Positions 2,696 through 25,225 are shown, numbered from the stretch's first letter. The stretch is DNA of 64,000 bases from a virus (IMGVR_UViG_3300050343_000281:1-64000); one strand, 5' to 3'. Notes: a model not told the origin generated them from the sequence alone. Numbers and translations are program-made.

Positions 2696-4969
2696 TTAAT
2701 GTCCATCTGCTAAATTTTTTGCTATTTCTGCAGGAGCTTTTAACTCTAAACTTAGCTTATAATTACTTTCCATAATTTCTTGAACTAATAATCTACACTC
2801 TTCTTCTTTTTCTACAGGTACGTTTACTACTAATTGATCATGAATTTGTAAAGATACCCATCCATTAATACCTTTTTTAATAAGCTCTCTATTTATTTCA
2901 ATAGCCGCCATATTAACTATACTAGCAGAAAGGCTTTGTATTTGGAAGTTTTTAGCATTATTAAGACCATTTTTATAATCTTTATACATACAATAAACTT
3001 CTTCTTTTCCATACTTTTTAGATATTTTATTTCTATATTTAAAATCCAATAACTTATCACCATGGATTTTATACAAATATTTTACTTTATCTAGATGTCT
3101 TTTTCTCCCCACTTCTGATTGAACATATCCTAAATGTCTCGCCATATCTTCAGAATTATCCATCCACTTTCTTAAATCTGGAAATCCCGATAAATAGCCC
3201 TCTATAAGTTCTTCAGCTTCTTCTGTATCAATCCCTAAAGTTTTACCTAGAGCAAAGCCTTTCATTCCATAAGGTACTCCTAAAGAATAAGCCTTGGCTT
3301 TTTGACGTAAAGGTTTATCCACTTTACCTAAATAATTATCAGCTTTTTTATCAGCACTAACTCCAGTAAGCCCTTCTGTAGCAATGGCAATAGTAGAATA
3401 AAAGTCATGTCCTTTTCTAAATATATCCCTTAATCCTTCATCTCCAGAAACATGAGCAAAAACATGCGGTTCTAAAGATTCGTAGTCATTGTCTATAAAA
3501 GATCTTCCATCTCCAGAAATAAAAAACTTTCTGATAATATTGTTATATTTTAAAACTAATGGGTCAAGTTCCCCTTCTTCTTTAGGTCTATTTAGCTGCT
3601 GCATATCGCTTCCATATCTTCCACTTATAGTTCTATGTTGAAAGAAACTAGGGTAAAATATACCATCTTCTTGAGCATCTAAAAACCTATCAATATAAGC
3701 ACCTTTTATTTTAACAAGTTTATTATAGTTACCTAACTTTCTAGCCCACTCAAGTTCCAATTCTTCCAGCTTTTGTATCATAATATCATTAAACTGAGGA
3801 GATCCTTTATCAGTTTTAGATACAGGTTCTATGTTCATAAAATCAAATACTATTTCTGCTAGTTGTTTTTTAGAACTTATGTTTAATAATTTACCCTCTT
3901 TATCAAGATGCATTTGGTATTGGATATTATAAATATCTTCTGCTTTTAATTCAGAATTACCTAGTAAAAAACCAGTAGCTATACAAGGTCTTTCTTGTTT
4001 TATAGATTTTTCTGTTAGACTATACTTTCCAGATTTAGTTTTAGGTATGTTTAAGTCAAAATATTCACAAACATATTGTCCAAACTTTCCTTTGTTGTTA
4101 ACAGGGTACTTTTCATTTAAGTACCAATTTAACCATGACTGCCCTGCATCTGTATTCATTATGTCATCAATTACTTCTTTTTCAAGCTTTAACATATCTT
4201 TTATTATACCTTTTTGGGTATAATTAATAAGATCTAGATCAAGAGCTATTCCTTTTTCTTCCATTTTAATAGTAACTTCTTTATACAAAGGCATTACTTC
4301 TTTATCATAAAATAACTCTTCAAGTCCCTCTTCAGCTAGTTTATCAGCAAACAACTCACCCAGTCTTAAAGTCAGATCAACATCGGCACAGGCATAAATA
4401 CCAATATCATATAAATCGGCTTTATATAGTTCATAGTTAGTTTTAGTAGAACTTCCACCATTTTTCTCTATACTAGATTTTAGTGCTAATTGTTCTTCGT
4501 TAGCTTCTTTTTCCATATCAAGACCTATCTGCTCTTGGTACTCAATAGCTACGTCTTTTAGTCTAAAGTTACCTTCTTCCTGGACCGTATGTTTCATTAA
4601 CATTATATCTGCTAAAAGGGAATTAGTAAGATCTAGTCCTAAATCATTCTTTACAATACGAATATCATAACTAGCGTTCCACATTAATAAGTCTTTTGAA
4701 GCTAATTCATGTAGCAAAATAAAATGGTCTACTGAATTATTTATGGGATGTTTTTTTAATTCCTGTGAATCAACGTCATAGTAGTATAAAGGCATATAAT
4801 ATCCTTTTCCTATTTCTCCAGAAAAAGAATATCCTATTACTTTATCTTTTCTTACATTAAGTCCTGTAGTCTCAGTATCAAATGCAAGGTAATCACAACT
4901 ATTTATATGATCAATAGCTTTTTTAAAGTCATGTATATCTGTAATTATTTTATAATCTTTTTTAACCAT
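2696..4969 (-). CDS. polA: DNA polymerase family A with 3'-5' exonuclease domain
   Basis: ExoI FDTETTG; motif A DYESLE; motif B RQKAKAYSLGVPYG; motif C QIHDQ; HRTISGRYGS. Confidence 0.96.
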   Translation of the reverse strand: MVKKDYKIITDIHDFKKAIDHINSCDYLAFDTETTGLNVRKDKVIGYSFSGEIGKGYYMPLYYYDVDSQELKKHPINNSVDHFILLHELASKDLLMWNASYDIRIVKNDLGLDLTNSLLADIMLMKHTVQEEGNFRLKDVAIEYQEQIGLDMEKEANEEQLALKSSIEKNGGSSTKTNYELYKADLYDIGIYACADVDLTLRLGELFADKLAEEGLEELFYDKEVMPLYKEVTIKMEEKGIALDLDLINYTQKGIIKDMLKLEKEVIDDIMNTDAGQSWLNWYLNEKYPVNNKGKFGQYVCEYFDLNIPKTKSGKYSLTEKSIKQERPCIATGFLLGNSELKAEDIYNIQYQMHLDKEGKLLNISSKKQLAEIVFDFMNIEPVSKTDKGSPQFNDIMIQKLEELELEWARKLGNYNKLVKIKGAYIDRFLDAQEDGIFYPSFFQHRTISGRYGSDMQQLNRPKEEGELDPLVLKYNNIIRKFFISGDGRSFIDNDYESLEPHVFAHVSGDEGLRDIFRKGHDFYSTIAIATEGLTGVSADKKADNYLGKVDKPLRQKAKAYSLGVPYGMKGFALGKTLGIDTEEAEELIEGYLSGFPDLRKWMDNSEDMARHLGYVQSEVGRKRHLDKVKYLYKIHGDKLLDFKYRNKISKKYGKEEVYCMYKDYKNGLNNAKNFQIQSLSASIVNMAAIEINRELIKKGINGWVSLQIHDQLVVNVPVEKEEECRLLVQEIMESNYKLSLELKAPAEIAKNLADGH

Positions 4970-6817: not shown

Positions 6818-7201
6818 TTATTTTAAAGTTGTTATTTTACCTTTTGGTTTTTTTTGTAAAGAGTCAATATATTTTAATACCTCTTTAACTTCTTCTTTAC
6901 TTATTTCATGTTCTGGCATTATAGTAGGTTTGTATAATTCATAGACCTTAACTGCAGTTTGGTCTGGCTTTTCATAGCCTTCCTCTTCTTCGTCTCCAAA
7001 AATCATGCCTTCTGGGTAATTTATAAACTTTACTATCCAATCAACATCTCTTCTTTTAGATAACTCAGCTAAGTCTGGACCTATTTTATCACCTTCTCCA
7101 ACACTATGACAGGCTGTACAGTTTTGATTAAAATAATTTTTACCATTAAAAGCAAATACTTGATTTGTTAAAATAATATACAAAAAAATAAAATATTTCA
7201 T
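6818..7201 (-). CDS. Class I monoheme cytochrome c
   Basis: Signal peptide; CTACH heme motif; IGPDL; distal MP axial Met. Confidence 0.9.
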   Translation of the reverse strand: MKYFIFLYIILTNQVFAFNGKNYFNQNCTACHSVGEGDKIGPDLAELSKRRDVDWIVKFINYPEGMIFGDEEEEGYEKPDQTAVKVYELYKPTIMPEHEISKEEVKEVLKYIDSLQKKPKGKITTLK

Positions 7202-7211
7202 AATAGCTCCT

Positions 7212-7790
7212 TTATATATCTTTCATTTTATTATATAAAAAGTGATGAAATCTAGCCGTGTTTAATGCGTCAATAACGGCATTATGTTTTCCACTACCTT
7301 GCCAAGTTAATCCACATCTTTTCATACATTTTGACAGACCTCCACTTCTATTTAATCCATTTGCTTCTGCATACATTTGATACAAATGTTTTATATTCAT
7401 TCCAGATCTTCCAAATTGCCATTCTACATCAGGAAGTTCTTTTCTAAGACAGTCCATGTCTCCTCCTCCCCACTGTTTGATTACTCTAGGAAAGTTATAT
7501 TTTTTTTGAAGATCTACCAATCTATTGTAAGATTCTTCTAAAGTTATTCCAGATTTTATATCATCGTCAGATATTTTTGTTAATTTTTTTATGAACTCAG
7601 AAAGTTTAACACCAATGTTAATGAAATCACTTACTTCTTCCAATACCTTAAACTCAGGTTCTATTTCGTATATAACGTACCCTACTTGAATTATCATCTC
7701 TTTATTTAACTGAGAGTCGGGAGTTTGGTGGTTTGTGTGTGGCTGTTCTAATTCTAGGTCAATGCAGCAGTGTATTTTGTTAGTGTTCAT
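7212..7790 (-). CDS. DEDDh 3'-5' exonuclease (ERI-1-like)
   Basis: IDLE, WGGGD and HNAVIDA motifs. Confidence 0.85.
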   Translation of the reverse strand: MNTNKIHCCIDLELEQPHTNHQTPDSQLNKEMIIQVGYVIYEIEPEFKVLEEVSDFINIGVKLSEFIKKLTKISDDDIKSGITLEESYNRLVDLQKKYNFPRVIKQWGGGDMDCLRKELPDVEWQFGRSGMNIKHLYQMYAEANGLNRSGGLSKCMKRCGLTWQGSGKHNAVIDALNTARFHHFLYNKMKDI

Positions 7791-10048: not shown

Positions 10049-10435
10049 TTAAACTAACTTAATAGTATTTTTTTTTTCAGTCTTTTCAATAACTTCAATT
10101 AACTGTCTACCAAAATTTTCCCAAGACTCTATTCTTTCTTGTATTACTTCTTCTCCCACTTTTTCTTTTATCAACTTTGATCTAGTATTTAAGTAAACGG
10201 CATAGTCCAAAACAGTATTATATAGTTCATTTTGAAAATTATATAAATCTAATTTATTTTCATTAAATATATTAATAGAAGTTTCTATATTAAATTCTTT
10301 CCATTCCCCATTGTTAATAGGTCTTAGTCTCCAAAGAAAACCTTTTCCGTACATTATCTCGTATCCATTATTGTGAGAATAAAAATATCCACTTATACTA
10401 TCTTGAATGATTTCCATAGACTCTTCTATTTCCAT
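10049..10435 (-). CDS. Hypothetical protein
   Basis: ORF between helicase and primase. Confidence 0.6.
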   Translation of the reverse strand: MEIEESMEIIQDSISGYFYSHNNGYEIMYGKGFLWRLRPINNGEWKEFNIETSINIFNENKLDLYNFQNELYNTVLDYAVYLNTRSKLIKEKVGEEVIQERIESWENFGRQLIEVIEKTEKKNTIKLV

Positions 10436-17191: not shown

Positions 17192-17416
17192 TTATTTTCC
17201 TTTTTTTATCAATGATTTTAGCTCATCTGTGTTTACATTTATTTTTAAAATAGCTTCGGATAGTGTTAAGTTAGTAAGGTCTTTATTTGAAGTATACTCT
17301 GATACTATAAAACTTTGATCGCTTTTAACTAAATCAATTATATAATTTAAATTAACATACTCGCTAATTTTACGACTATATAACTTTCTATTTTTATACT
17401 TTATAATATTTTCCAT
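17192..17416 (-). CDS. PhaR-like (PHB_acc_N) DNA-binding domain protein
   Basis: IIKYKNRKLYS..SEYVNL..I.DLVK...F.V......DLT...L matches the PhaR N-terminal pattern. Confidence 0.8.
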   Translation of the reverse strand: MENIIKYKNRKLYSRKISEYVNLNYIIDLVKSDQSFIVSEYTSNKDLTNLTLSEAILKINVNTDELKSLIKKGK

Positions 17417-22315: not shown

Positions 22316-22705
22316 TTAAATAGTATAGTATAAATCATTTAACTTTGTATAATTATTTTTACTCTTTGCTGTTTTTTCATCAACTCTTTGTAATTTACCT
22401 AGCTTTTGCTCTTTTCCATCTGAGTAAATCAACCAACTTAAACCATTACTATCTTGATGTAAAATAGACTCTTGTTTGAAGTTTAAGAAAGCAAATGACT
22501 TTAAAGCCTCTAATTCTACATTATCCCTTACCACAACTACAAAACTATTTTCTAAATTACCTTGATAAAATCCTTGAGATTTTCCATAATGAAAATTACA
22601 CTCAGCAAGACATTTTTCTAAATTAGAGGTTCTTCTTTTATTCTCTTCTGAAGTGTTATTTTCTAATTCAGCCGATAAAATTACAATCCTTGACATTATT
22701 CTCAT
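22316..22705 (-). CDS. S-adenosylmethionine lyase/hydrolase-like protein (T3 SAMase family)
   Basis: VILSAE..N..R; GFYQG..ENSFVV; FKQESIL resemble recalled T3 SAMase motifs; early location. Confidence 0.7.
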   Translation of the reverse strand: MRIMSRIVILSAELENNTSEENKRRTSNLEKCLAECNFHYGKSQGFYQGNLENSFVVVVRDNVELEALKSFAFLNFKQESILHQDSNGLSWLIYSDGKEQKLGKLQRVDEKTAKSKNNYTKLNDLYYTI

Positions 22706-22854: not shown

Positions 22855-23070
22855 TTACAAGCCCCTATGATTATCTAAAATATTTAGTAACTTAATATTA
22901 ATGTCATAAACTTTTTGATCTAATTCTTTTACTTCATTACTATCGTTTCCCCACATAATATTATAAACTTCTATCTTTTTTAATAAAATATTTAACTCTT
23001 TGTATAACATCAAATAAGTACTCTTTGTAAAAGCGTCCATTGATTCTGTAATTTTTGTTTGATTGTTCAT
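22855..23070 (-). CDS. Hypothetical early protein
   Basis: Downstream of a promoter, with RBS. Confidence 0.55.
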   Translation of the reverse strand: MNNQTKITESMDAFTKSTYLMLYKELNILLKKIEVYNIMWGNDSNEVKELDQKVYDINIKLLNILDNHRGL

Positions 23071-23103
23071 ACGGTCCCTCTTTTGTTTATTTCCTTAATA
23101 TTA

Positions 23104-23132
23104 ATTATAGTGTATAACGCAATGCAATGCAA
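23104..23132 (-). promoter_or_regulatory. Sigma70-type early promoter
   Basis: TTGCAT-17-TATAAT. Confidence 0.7.
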
Positions 23133-23224
23133 CAAAAAAATAACATAGTGTGTAAAAAAATGTAATATTGTAATGATTTCAATAAAAGAGTAACAATTCC
23201 GTAACTTATCCGTAAGTAATTAAA

Positions 23225-23237
23225 TTTAACAACTATA
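23225..23237 (+). promoter_or_regulatory. Putative phage late promoter motif
   Basis: TTTAACAACTATA, identical to the motif before structural genes. Confidence 0.7.
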
Positions 23238-23239
23238 TA

Positions 23240-23610
23240 TATATAAGACTAAGACCGTAAAAAAATGCCTTAAGATGTACATGCAAGAGGCGACTAGGAT
23301 AGCCCCACTAACTTAGGTTAGTATATCACTACAAGTCGAGGGATTAAGTTTGTAGCGGAACGCTTAGTTTAGTATAAAGAGTAAGTACACGCTCTAAAAT
23401 GCGACCAATCAGAGCTTGATAGCTAAAGCCTTAACCGAAAGTACAAATAAAGTTAAGCGCATAACATAACCAAACTAGAGTTTTTCGGACTACTAGTAAA
23501 GTATTGTTATGCCTTGAAACGTAGCTTTATAAAGATATAGCCCCTTATCCTTGGAGCTATTTAGAAGTGTATAATGTTGCATTGAACAATGCTTGTTAAA
23601 TCGGTGGGAC
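23240..23610 (+). ncRNA. Candidate large structured non-coding RNA
   Basis: Gap with no ORF of 60 aa or more, at least 11 nested helices, downstream of the late motif; G-U pairs favour the + strand. Confidence 0.65.
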
Positions 23611-23653
23611 CATTGAAATGTATTCTATTATATCCGTATAAGTGTTAAATGTA

Positions 23654-23882: not shown

Positions 23883-23911
23883 ATTATATCTTATCTAAAA
23901 TATCCTGTCAA
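23883..23911 (-). promoter_or_regulatory. Consensus sigma70 early promoter
   Basis: TTGACA-17-TATAAT, perfect match. Confidence 0.88.
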
Positions 23912-24156: not shown

Positions 24157-24339
24157 TTACTCTCCCTTTAACCAAGTTAGGTGTTTTACTATAGTACTTG
24201 TAATATTTAGATTACTCTTGTTGCATAACTGTGACTCTTTTTTACTTAGTAATACTGAGTTACCAATCAATGTATTAGTTATAATGCCGCCATCACCATT
24301 GTACTTGTAGTGGTAGTCTCCAATAAATACTGATATCAT
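24157..24339 (-). CDS. Hypothetical early protein
   Basis: Short ORF with RBS. Confidence 0.55.
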   Translation of the reverse strand: MISVFIGDYHYKYNGDGGIITNTLIGNSVLLSKKESQLCNKSNLNITSTIVKHLTWLKGE

Positions 24340-24378: not shown

Positions 24379-24406
24379 AGTATACCACACTTACAACTCC
24401 TGTCAA
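24379..24406 (-). promoter_or_regulatory. Sigma70-type early promoter (extended -10)
   Basis: TTGACA-16-TATACT with TG before the -10. Confidence 0.75.
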
Positions 24407-24513
24407 GGGGAAAGTACACTATATTAAAATAAAATTCAGTATTACAATGATGACAGATAATTAGTTACTTTATATATTCTAGTCTATATAATGTAATATT
24501 GGAGAGTGATGTA

Positions 24514-24660
24514 TGCAAGGATGGTACCAAGTATGTGGTAAGTATTTTGCTAATGCAAGAATCGTGCCCACCAATATGGCACAGTATTTGCAGGGGGGAA
24601 TGCTTGGCATAGTAATTGCTAATGCAAGAGCGATACCAGAAAGTTGGCATGGGGATTGTA
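24514..24660. promoter_or_regulatory. Array of seven sigma54 (RpoN) -24/-12 boxes
   Basis: Matches to TGGCAC-N5-TTGCW at 24514(-), 24536(+), 24554(-), 24577(+), 24605(+), 24623(-), 24645(+). Confidence 0.8.
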
Positions 24661-25225
24661 GGGGGGGTGGGTGGTTCTAGCTGTGTACTGTTGGTTACGT
24701 ATAGGGCTGAGAGTGCGTAGGTACTAAATATATTTATTACACGTAATATAACCTCTATACTACCCTATTTACCATTTACTTTACTCCATTTAATTGATCT
24801 ATTATATACTTACATAATAATACAGGTAATACTAAAGGAGTTGATATAATTATAACAACTGCTGTTATGCCCAAAAAAAAACTCATTAATACAAAAACCA
24901 ATGCACTTTCTGTTATATTCATAAATCCTCTAAATAATCTTTAATTATTTCTATTCTAAACTGTGGAGCATATGGTTTATTCTGATCAAAGCTTTTCTCA
25001 AGATCTGCCAAATATAAGTATATATCATCAGAGACTAATCTATCAACATAAGAATCATCAATTCCAATAAGCCATATTCTAATATATTTCAATACTGCTC
25101 CTATTTATTACACTTAATTTCGACAACCTCTTAAATTAGCTTTATTTGCGTTTTTTAGATAAGACATATAAAGTATAGGGTTAGGGTGTTTAGAGAATTT
25201 AAACGGCAAATTAAGGGCTAATTTG

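Follow-up and report, generated by a model that had tools for sequence, protein, structure and literature searches.

Alternating arrays of sigma-54-type boxes in phages: a candidate docking site for host RNA polymerase near the early promoters of a marine phage

We found seven 16-bp boxes of the sigma-54 (RpoN) promoter type within 147 bp of non-coding DNA in a phage from marine metagenomes, and this array is a member of a widespread class of alternating sigma-54 box arrays found mostly in phages. Host sigma-54 is the likeliest reader that we predict for the boxes. Judging from sequence comparison, we propose a cis-acting docking array for closed sigma-54 complexes, placed between a block of small genes and the early sigma-70 promoters, and we give this proposal an even chance of being correct. 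The parts of the element are known; their arrangement and the phage setting have not been described previously, and a full-text literature search found no paper describing sigma-54 box arrays in phages.

The sigma-54 holoenzyme forms stable closed complexes, and their opening needs an AAA+ activator ATPase; glnAp2 and pspA are examples of such enhancer-dependent promoters. It is the one form of bacterial polymerase that sits on DNA indefinitely without acting. Surveys of sigma-54 regulons are available (PMC4591121, PMC12316311), and most of the sites mapped by ChIP-seq in Escherichia coli were transcriptionally silent (Bonocora et al. 2015, PMC4591121).

The array and its place in the phage genome

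The window, that is, the whole stretch of 64,000 nucleotides that was analysed, corresponds to the initial 64 kb of an IMG/VR viral contig of 74.4 kb. Its leftward genes occupy the part from about 27430 down to position 1 and include a primase, a helicase, a DNA polymerase, a SAM lyase, a Sak annealing protein, and many small ORFs; its rightward genes, from 27469 on, are a T5-like large terminase (TerL), followed by the portal and structural genes. The contig L002 is the same phage (99.96% identity), and two relatives, L003 and L005, have TerL sequences 96% and 82% identical, respectively, to that of the window's phage, L003 being the nearest of the distinct relatives.

The array lies inside a 436-bp gene-free gap between the leftward genes 24339-24157 and 24922-24776, within a G-rich island of 49% GC in a genome of 31% GC. 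An earlier note on this DNA had listed seven sigma-54-type 16-mers, and all of them were found, with the coordinates and strands given below together with the neighboring features.

24514..24529, minus strand: box 1, TGGTACCATCCTTGCA, 16.4 bits; the outermost leftward box and the sole box co-oriented with the downstream genes (24339 leftwards)
24536..24551, plus strand: box 2, TGGTAAGTATTTTGCT, 11.9 bits; position 6 is A; back-to-back with box 1 (gap 6) and facing box 3 (gap 2)
24554..24569, minus strand: box 3, GGGCACGATTCTTGCA, 16.9 bits; position 1 is G
24577..24592, plus strand: box 4, TGGCACAGTATTTGCA, 19.7 bits, the top match of the genome; a G6 run (24593-24598) follows directly
24605..24620, plus strand: box 5, TGGCATAGTAATTGCT, 17.1 bits; the first box in the second unit of about 69 bp; faces box 6 (gap 2)
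24623..24638, minus strand: box 6, TGGTATCGCTCTTGCA; leftward half of the back-to-back core pair retained in L003 and L005
24645..24660, plus strand: box 7, TGGCATGGGGATTGTA; the -12 GC is GT here and GC in L003 and L005; rightward half of the core pair
24661..24742, plus strand: G7 run (24661-24667) and G-rich, C-poor tail, kept in the relatives
24407..24513, no strand: AT-rich spacer from the array to the sigma-70 promoter, with a weak rightward sigma-70-like match at 24450-24478 (10/12)
24379..24406, minus strand: near-consensus sigma-70 promoter (11/12; TTGACA, 16 nt, TATACT, with a TG extension)
23883-23911, minus strand: perfect sigma-70 promoter (12/12; TTGACA, 17 nt, TATAAT), about 470 bp downstream of the first

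The pair geometry that had been claimed for the array was also recovered, namely gaps of 2 bp in the two facing pairs and of 6, 7, and 6 bp in the three back-to-back pairs. The inter-box gaps are, in order, 6, 2, 7, 12, 2, and 6 bp, and the gap of 12 bp is one tandem step. The strict pattern TGGYAY-N5-TTGCW is matched by four of the seven boxes, and boxes 2, 3, and 7 are each off by one motif base. Throughout the seven boxes, GG (positions 2-3), A at position 5, TTG (positions 12-14), and the spacing are invariant, and the GC element is present in six (GT in box 7); all the N5 columns vary.

The array can be described as two units of about 69 bp in register plus one additional leftward box. 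A repeat search found the exact 14-mer TTGCTAATGCAAGA repeated at a distance of 69 bp, and a hand alignment showed the two units to be about 60% alike, with agreement mainly at the box positions; they are too diverged to be called by Tandem Repeats Finder. The tail at 24661-24742 contains GAGAGTGCGT at 24709-24718 and has the terminal sequence TTATTACAC. Its minus strand is C-rich and G-poor and lies at the end of the upstream leftward gene block.

Sites were scored with a heuristic sigma-54 weight matrix, the frequencies of which were set to follow the consensus. When the genome was scanned against shuffled controls, as the earlier note had suggested, the array stood out with seven sites of at least 11.9 bits in 147 bp (range 11.9-19.7). 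The largest cluster in 200 whole-genome shuffles comprised two sites, and no more than two were reached when the GC-rich island was shuffled 5000 times at the mononucleotide level. The top five sigma-54-like sites of the 74.4-kb genome are all inside the array. For the strict pattern, which four of the boxes match, 0.16 matches are expected in the whole 64-kb window, and none of 100 shuffles reached four.

Box 1 lies 108 bp upstream of the 11/12 sigma-70 promoter, in agreement with the previous placement of the array just upstream of an early promoter. The promoter fires leftwards, away from the array, into gene 24339-24157 and onward to the SAM lyase gene at 22705-22316. Its product (22316-22705, minus strand) belongs to the SAM lyase family (PF23780, 7e-23), and the gene is of the T3 anti-restriction type, which is typically first-expressed. 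The two strong leftward promoters in series, both heading the operon with this gene, resemble T7 A1-A3. Box 1 is about 160 nt from the genes starting at 24339 (leftwards), with the sigma-70 promoter in between. All four rightward boxes point at opposite-strand genes; since four of the seven boxes are aimed in this way, a promoter role fits box 1 alone.

It is very improbable that the region is a small gene (55 aa) or a structured RNA, in which the boxes would be by-products of a repeated peptide or of hairpin stems. The 55 open codons of ORF P0001 (24513..24680, plus strand) begin with an ATG that has a GGAG, resembling a ribosome binding site, 7 nt upstream, the peptide repeats ANAR, and the facing boxes could pair as stems. 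We rejected this ORF as a gene: a stop ends the frame after 3 codons in L003 and 7 codons in L005, and no PHROG match was found for the ORF. In their second halves, the two repeat units are out of step by one base and therefore read in different frames, which indicates that the repeat exists at the DNA level. As for RNA, the array region gave no tRNA and no Rfam match even at E <= 1, and it folded no better than shuffled sequences on either strand (z -0.97 and -1.26). The N5 segments of the facing boxes, which would form the internal loops of such hairpins, are non-complementary, and the 'stems' are conserved in sequence without covariation. These two features point to the recognition of duplex DNA by a protein. 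The boxes are non-coding.

Some further observations were made in the window. A 580-bp gene-free stretch in the early operon (23070-23653), with a 41% GC island at 23275-23424, gave no Rfam match and is a candidate antisense or non-coding RNA. Its portion at 23318-23513 is 70% identical to L005 3498-3698, which is preceded on the plus strand by a sigma-70 promoter and a consensus sigma-54 box (3441); the box is decayed in the window. In metagenome run X3, one contig stops at 24667 and another begins at 24673, within the G7-T-GGG-T-GG run, each carrying Nextera adaptor letters. Sequencing or assembly probably failed here because of the G homopolymer, so that the breaks would not be a genome end, although they could conceivably mark a fixed DNA end; the depths of run X1 gave no sign of a terminal-repeat boundary at the array. 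The leftward genes of the window include a stand-alone PhaR-type DNA-binding domain (17192-17416, minus strand; PF07879, 9e-13), a cytochrome c (6818-7201, minus strand), the nearest atlas cluster of which is commonest in Bdellovibrionota, and a 128-aa protein (10049-10435, minus strand) with a sub-threshold match to the STING ligand-binding domain (21.5 bits, cut-off 27).

Conservation in the lineage and a wider class of arrays

In L003 and L005, the element is at the same syntenic place, and the flanks align. The number of boxes is two in L003 (one back-to-back pair), three in L005, and seven in the window, and a marine metagenome contig carries a variant with 138 nt (2 x 69) extra between the same flanks; the box copy number is labile. 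What stays constant in the lineage is a core made up of a back-to-back pair, a G-run abutting its rightward box, and a G-rich tail of about 80 nt. The window's phage appears to have expanded this core by duplicating the unit of about 69 bp. A metagenome scan for further members of the lineage gave the L005 phage again and nothing else, and BLAST against cultured phages gave no match for the region or for a 10-kb stretch.

Conservation within the lineage was judged from just three distinct versions of the core pair (window, L003, and L005), in which 2 of the 22 motif columns vary, as compared with 7 of the 10 spacer columns (Fisher p = 0.001). The N5 segments have drifted while the motif columns have stayed, which upholds the earlier claim of selection on the motif. 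The GG-N10-GC spacing, the loss of which in related phages had been named in the earlier note as refuting its reading, is kept in both L003 and L005.

We then searched sequence collections with a pattern consisting of a back-to-back pair with 20 fixed bases and a gap of 4-9. The pair was found in 56 viral contigs of 29-66% GC; the chance expectation is less than one match, a value that rests on a rough guess of the collection size. At least three boxes lie within 300 bp in 51 of the 57 viral occurrences, and at least four in 39 of them. The viral arrays have up to 11 boxes each, in a mostly strictly alternating orientation.

Removal of near-duplicates left 46 arrays with 254 boxes, the logo of which is T-TGGCA-[C/T]-[G/a]-[G/a]-N-N-[c]-TTGCA-[T/A]. 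Position 7 is G in 66% of the boxes and position 8 is G or A in 73%, and these two positions are constrained by neither the search pattern nor the matrix. The G or purine found there fits what we take to be the extended sigma-54 consensus. Across the 46 arrays, facing boxes are mostly separated by 1-5 bp (mode 2) and back-to-back boxes mostly by 6-8 bp; two boxes thus span about 41 bp, or about four helical turns. TTGC is located at exactly +11 for 191 of 231 TGGCAY sequences, and the inter-box gaps are variable. As the spacing is fixed within boxes and flexible between them, the 16-mer is indicated to be the unit; a rigid dimer bound to a palindrome would produce the reverse pattern.

The surroundings of the arrays also have features in common. 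G/C runs of at least 6 are 5.4x enriched near the arrays and adjoin 18 of the 46. Sigma-70 promoters of at least 11/12 are 4x denser within 250 bp of the 46 arrays than elsewhere, and all nine of those near the arrays fire outward and none inward; because outward firing is largely expected from the gene layout, it is the density that carries weight. SAM lyase homologs were seen near the arrays of five contigs (L038, L042, L055, L065, and L068).

In 596 Gb of bacterial and archaeal genomes, the same pattern gave 56 loci, bacterial or from metagenome-assembled genomes (MAGs), and 48 of these are bare pairs. Gaps of 4-5 bp occur in 19 of the bacterial/MAG loci and in none of the viral set. Five of the loci have at least four boxes; they are on MAG contigs of 1.3-40 kb, which could themselves be viral. 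The back-to-back pair is present in genomes of Comamonadaceae/Burkholderiales (L084, L088, L090, L094, L105, L110, L112, L118, L122, and L124). The pairs of Comamonadaceae and Limnohabitans are bare, have a short gap of 4-6 bp, and recur in many genomes; they probably represent a divergent pair of sigma-54 promoters that is conserved on the chromosome and differs from the phage arrays.

Two viral contigs, unrelated to each other, have arrays in another genomic setting: L013 (4265-4620, 54% GC, about 10 boxes) and L015 (1883-2426, 61% GC, about 7 boxes). Both arrays are directly upstream of a sigma-70-like promoter and a module of terS-like, TerL, and portal genes, and most of their boxes are co-oriented with these genes. 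By eye, there are apparent near-consensus sigma-70 promoters between the array and the genes. A late-promoter or packaging-site role is more plausible in these two contigs than in the window.

The predicted reader of the boxes

To find a protein common to the array loci, we clustered all their ORFs within the fetched flanks, and no family common to them was obtained. The largest families were TerL (12 loci), GP88 (10 loci), and SAM lyase (6 loci, including 22316-22705 of the window), and L013 and L015 have terS-like ORFs that show no relation to each other. The motif is common to phages of very different GC content and no phage protein is shared, which suggests that the reader is a conserved host factor, most likely sigma-54. 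The phage itself seems to encode neither sigma-54 nor an activator for it: a domain search found neither a Sigma54_DBD nor a Sigma54_activat domain in it, PF00158 had no match in the phage or in three other array-bearing contigs, and the left-arm ORFs gave no sigma factor, polymerase, or AAA+ activator with Pfam. No enhancer-like repeat was recognized. As weak hints of the host, the best match of TerL is from a Silvanigrella phage, and the cytochrome c cluster mentioned above is commonest in Bdellovibrionota. The rpoN gene is present in two of the five MAGs that hold array-bearing contigs; these MAGs are incomplete and their binning is unreliable.

We consider it unlikely that the boxes are read by something other than sigma-54, either a phage DNA-binding protein (a repressor, an initiator of replication at its origin, or a terminase small subunit at a pac/cos-like site) or a different host regulator that recognizes direct TKGCA repeats one helical turn apart. 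The stereotyped palindromic spacing resembles operator or iteron arrays, the array is flanked by an AT-rich stretch and G-runs, HTH/NUMOD1 proteins are encoded in the window, and a phage protein encoded beyond the fetched flanks could serve. The absence of a protein family common to the array loci within those flanks argues against such a reader, as does the occurrence of the same motif at 29-66% GC with a match to what we take to be the sigma-54 consensus even at unconstrained positions; a rigid dimer would give flexible spacing within boxes and fixed spacing between them, the reverse of that seen.

For a terminase site, lambda cosB is the known system to compare. There, R sites and an IHF site lie upstream of the small terminase gene, and both cosB and the present array have boxes of about 16 bp in both orientations in a non-coding gap with a G-rich neighboring stretch. 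TerL is inside the flanks of 12 array loci, and the arrays of L013 and L015 are directly upstream of terS-like, TerL, and portal genes. However, the boxes of cosB are phage-specific, whereas the host-type motif described here recurs in unrelated phages, and the array of the window is about 4 kb from TerL, in the early arm. For the window, the evidence speaks against a pac- or cosB-like terminase site, the array being 4.1 kb from TerL inside the early arm and the motif occurring in phages with unrelated terS-like ORFs.

Possible functions and known systems

We infer from the features above that sigma-54 reads the boxes, that the complexes stay closed, and that they have a role in place. Host sigma-54 (RpoN) RNA polymerase would dock on the seven boxes, and, as the holoenzyme does not open DNA without an activator ATPase, it would sit there as stable closed complexes. 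The site is flanked by the end of the leftward block of small genes upstream and by the strong sigma-70 promoter of the SAM-lyase early operon; docked there, the complexes may serve as an anchor or boundary or, by way of the leftward box 1, as a poised promoter. Such a role would be position-bound and go beyond that of a free sponge. In the back-to-back pairs, the GG elements are about one helical turn apart and would be on the same face, with the polymerases pointing apart, so that both boxes could be occupied. In the facing pairs, the GC elements are 6 bp apart, and two holoenzymes should collide or sit on opposite faces. The facing geometry is conserved and so presumably matters, though it counts against a plain sponge. 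Both the overlap of the facing pairs and the fixed syntenic position by the near-consensus sigma-70 promoter speak for an element tied to its place, either for docking or as a poised promoter. The earlier note had raised, as an alternative to its decoy, a nucleoprotein cap or anchor just ahead of the early promoter, and this fits the data at least as well as the decoy does. The boundary version is weakened by a result from E. coli, where inactive sigma-54 sites, occurring singly inside genes, did not act as roadblocks for the genes they overlap (PMC4591121).

The decoy proposed previously, in which the array, multiplied by replication, titrates scarce sigma-54 holoenzyme and shuts off the host sigma-54 regulons irrespective of its position, has a modest chance of being right and is on the whole unlikely. 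The array offers high-quality sites that serve no gene in four of the seven cases, the phage is without an activator, and the G-runs directly after the -12 elements of boxes 4 and 7, in a genome of 31% GC, are expected to disfavor opening. The copy number changes fast among close relatives (2, 3, and 7 boxes, and the variant with 138 nt extra). E. coli datA, a chromosomal cluster of high-affinity DnaA sites that serves no adjacent gene and for which titration has been shown experimentally, is a precedent, yet it is host-encoded and titrates a replication initiator; we know of no datA-like titration locus for a sigma factor or in a phage. To our knowledge, a benefit from silencing sigma-54 regulons has been shown for no phage, which counts against the decoy. 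Holoenzymes should be unable to occupy both boxes of a facing pair at a distance of 1-5 bp (mode 2), which would halve the capacity, and this geometry is nevertheless conserved in unrelated phages. In addition, two boxes suffice in L003, whose TerL is 96% identical, and one syntenic position is kept in the relatives. Decoy roles of non-promoter sites have been discussed (PMC4591121).

A bidirectional cassette of working sigma-54 promoters, driven by host activators and tying phage expression to the state of the host, seems rather unlikely as well. The leftward boxes would serve the early operon, with which box 1 is co-oriented, and the rightward boxes would yield either a transcript antisense to the block of small genes upstream or a small, G-rich RNA; the tail of about 80 nt after box 7 is conserved in the relatives, and most boxes of L013 and L015 aim at the terS-like, TerL, and portal genes. 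Nevertheless, there is no activator gene and no recognizable enhancer, facing promoters would initiate inside each other, G7 occupies the region to be melted at box 7, the tail lacks a terminator and shows no folding beyond that of shuffled sequences, and the early operon already has its near-consensus sigma-70 promoter. A sigma-54-like promoter is documented in the Pseudomonas phage YuA, at least as reported in a later paper (PMC10914365), and this lends the cassette some support.

The docking array can be compared with several known systems. Bacterial sigma-54 promoters of the -24/-12 type have the same 16-bp signal, with GG and GC 10 bp apart in TGGCAC-N5-TTGCA. In contrast to them, the window has seven alternating boxes in 147 bp with facing pairs 2 bp apart, neither an activator gene nor an enhancer, most boxes without a gene, and G-runs in the melting region. 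The inactive and intragenic sites of E. coli, where holoenzyme is bound without detectable transcription, are similar in that only the informative motif positions are conserved, and the test applied to them was the one used here, with the same outcome (PMC4591121). They are single, scattered, and mostly intragenic, whereas the array is dense, intergenic, and viral, with a fixed pair geometry. The nearest published case is the promoter of YuA, a phage that uses the host sigma-54 signal: as cited in PMC10914365, it is a single sigma-54-like promoter with a mapped transcription start (Ceyssens et al. 2008), and that citing account reports no facing or back-to-back pairs such as those of the array.

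The cultured, T5-like Vibrio phage phi 3 (L132, NC_028895.1), recorded from V. cholerae 1051, has just two consensus sigma-54 sites, at 4415-4430 (plus strand) and 7336-7351 (minus strand). Both are in non-coding control regions of the left terminal repeat, where the pre-early genes are located, and they are present again in the copy at the right end. One site is in the divergent pre-early control region, and the other is in a gene-free stretch at the inner end of the repeat, which we take to correspond to the T5 injection-stop region. The terminase of phi 3 is distantly related to that of the window's phage (25% identity), and its sites likewise adjoin the first-expressed genes, but they are single sites about 2.9 kb apart and not an array. 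The V. cholerae host presumably has RpoN. We found no published statement on the sigma-54 sites of phi 3.

More tentatively, and with distinctly less confidence than for the window's array, we suggest from these comparisons that many unrelated phages might use the sigma-54 polymerase as a building block and not for transcription. Where the first-expressed genes begin, silent closed-complex arrays of fixed alternating geometry would then build a nucleoprotein device that could be an entry structure, a boundary, or an anchor. As the motif is universal, standard sigma-54 holoenzyme from E. coli or Vibrio is suitable for testing the docking, and phi 3 offers one cultured starting system. The docked-complex device, if true, would be a non-transcriptional viral use of a host polymerase holoenzyme, and it bears on the role of the many silent sigma-54 sites in bacterial ChIP studies. 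A virus element made of many such sites and recurring across diverse phages would be a new exploitation of a host enzyme, whether as a sponge, as an anchor or boundary, or as a switch responding to the state of the host.
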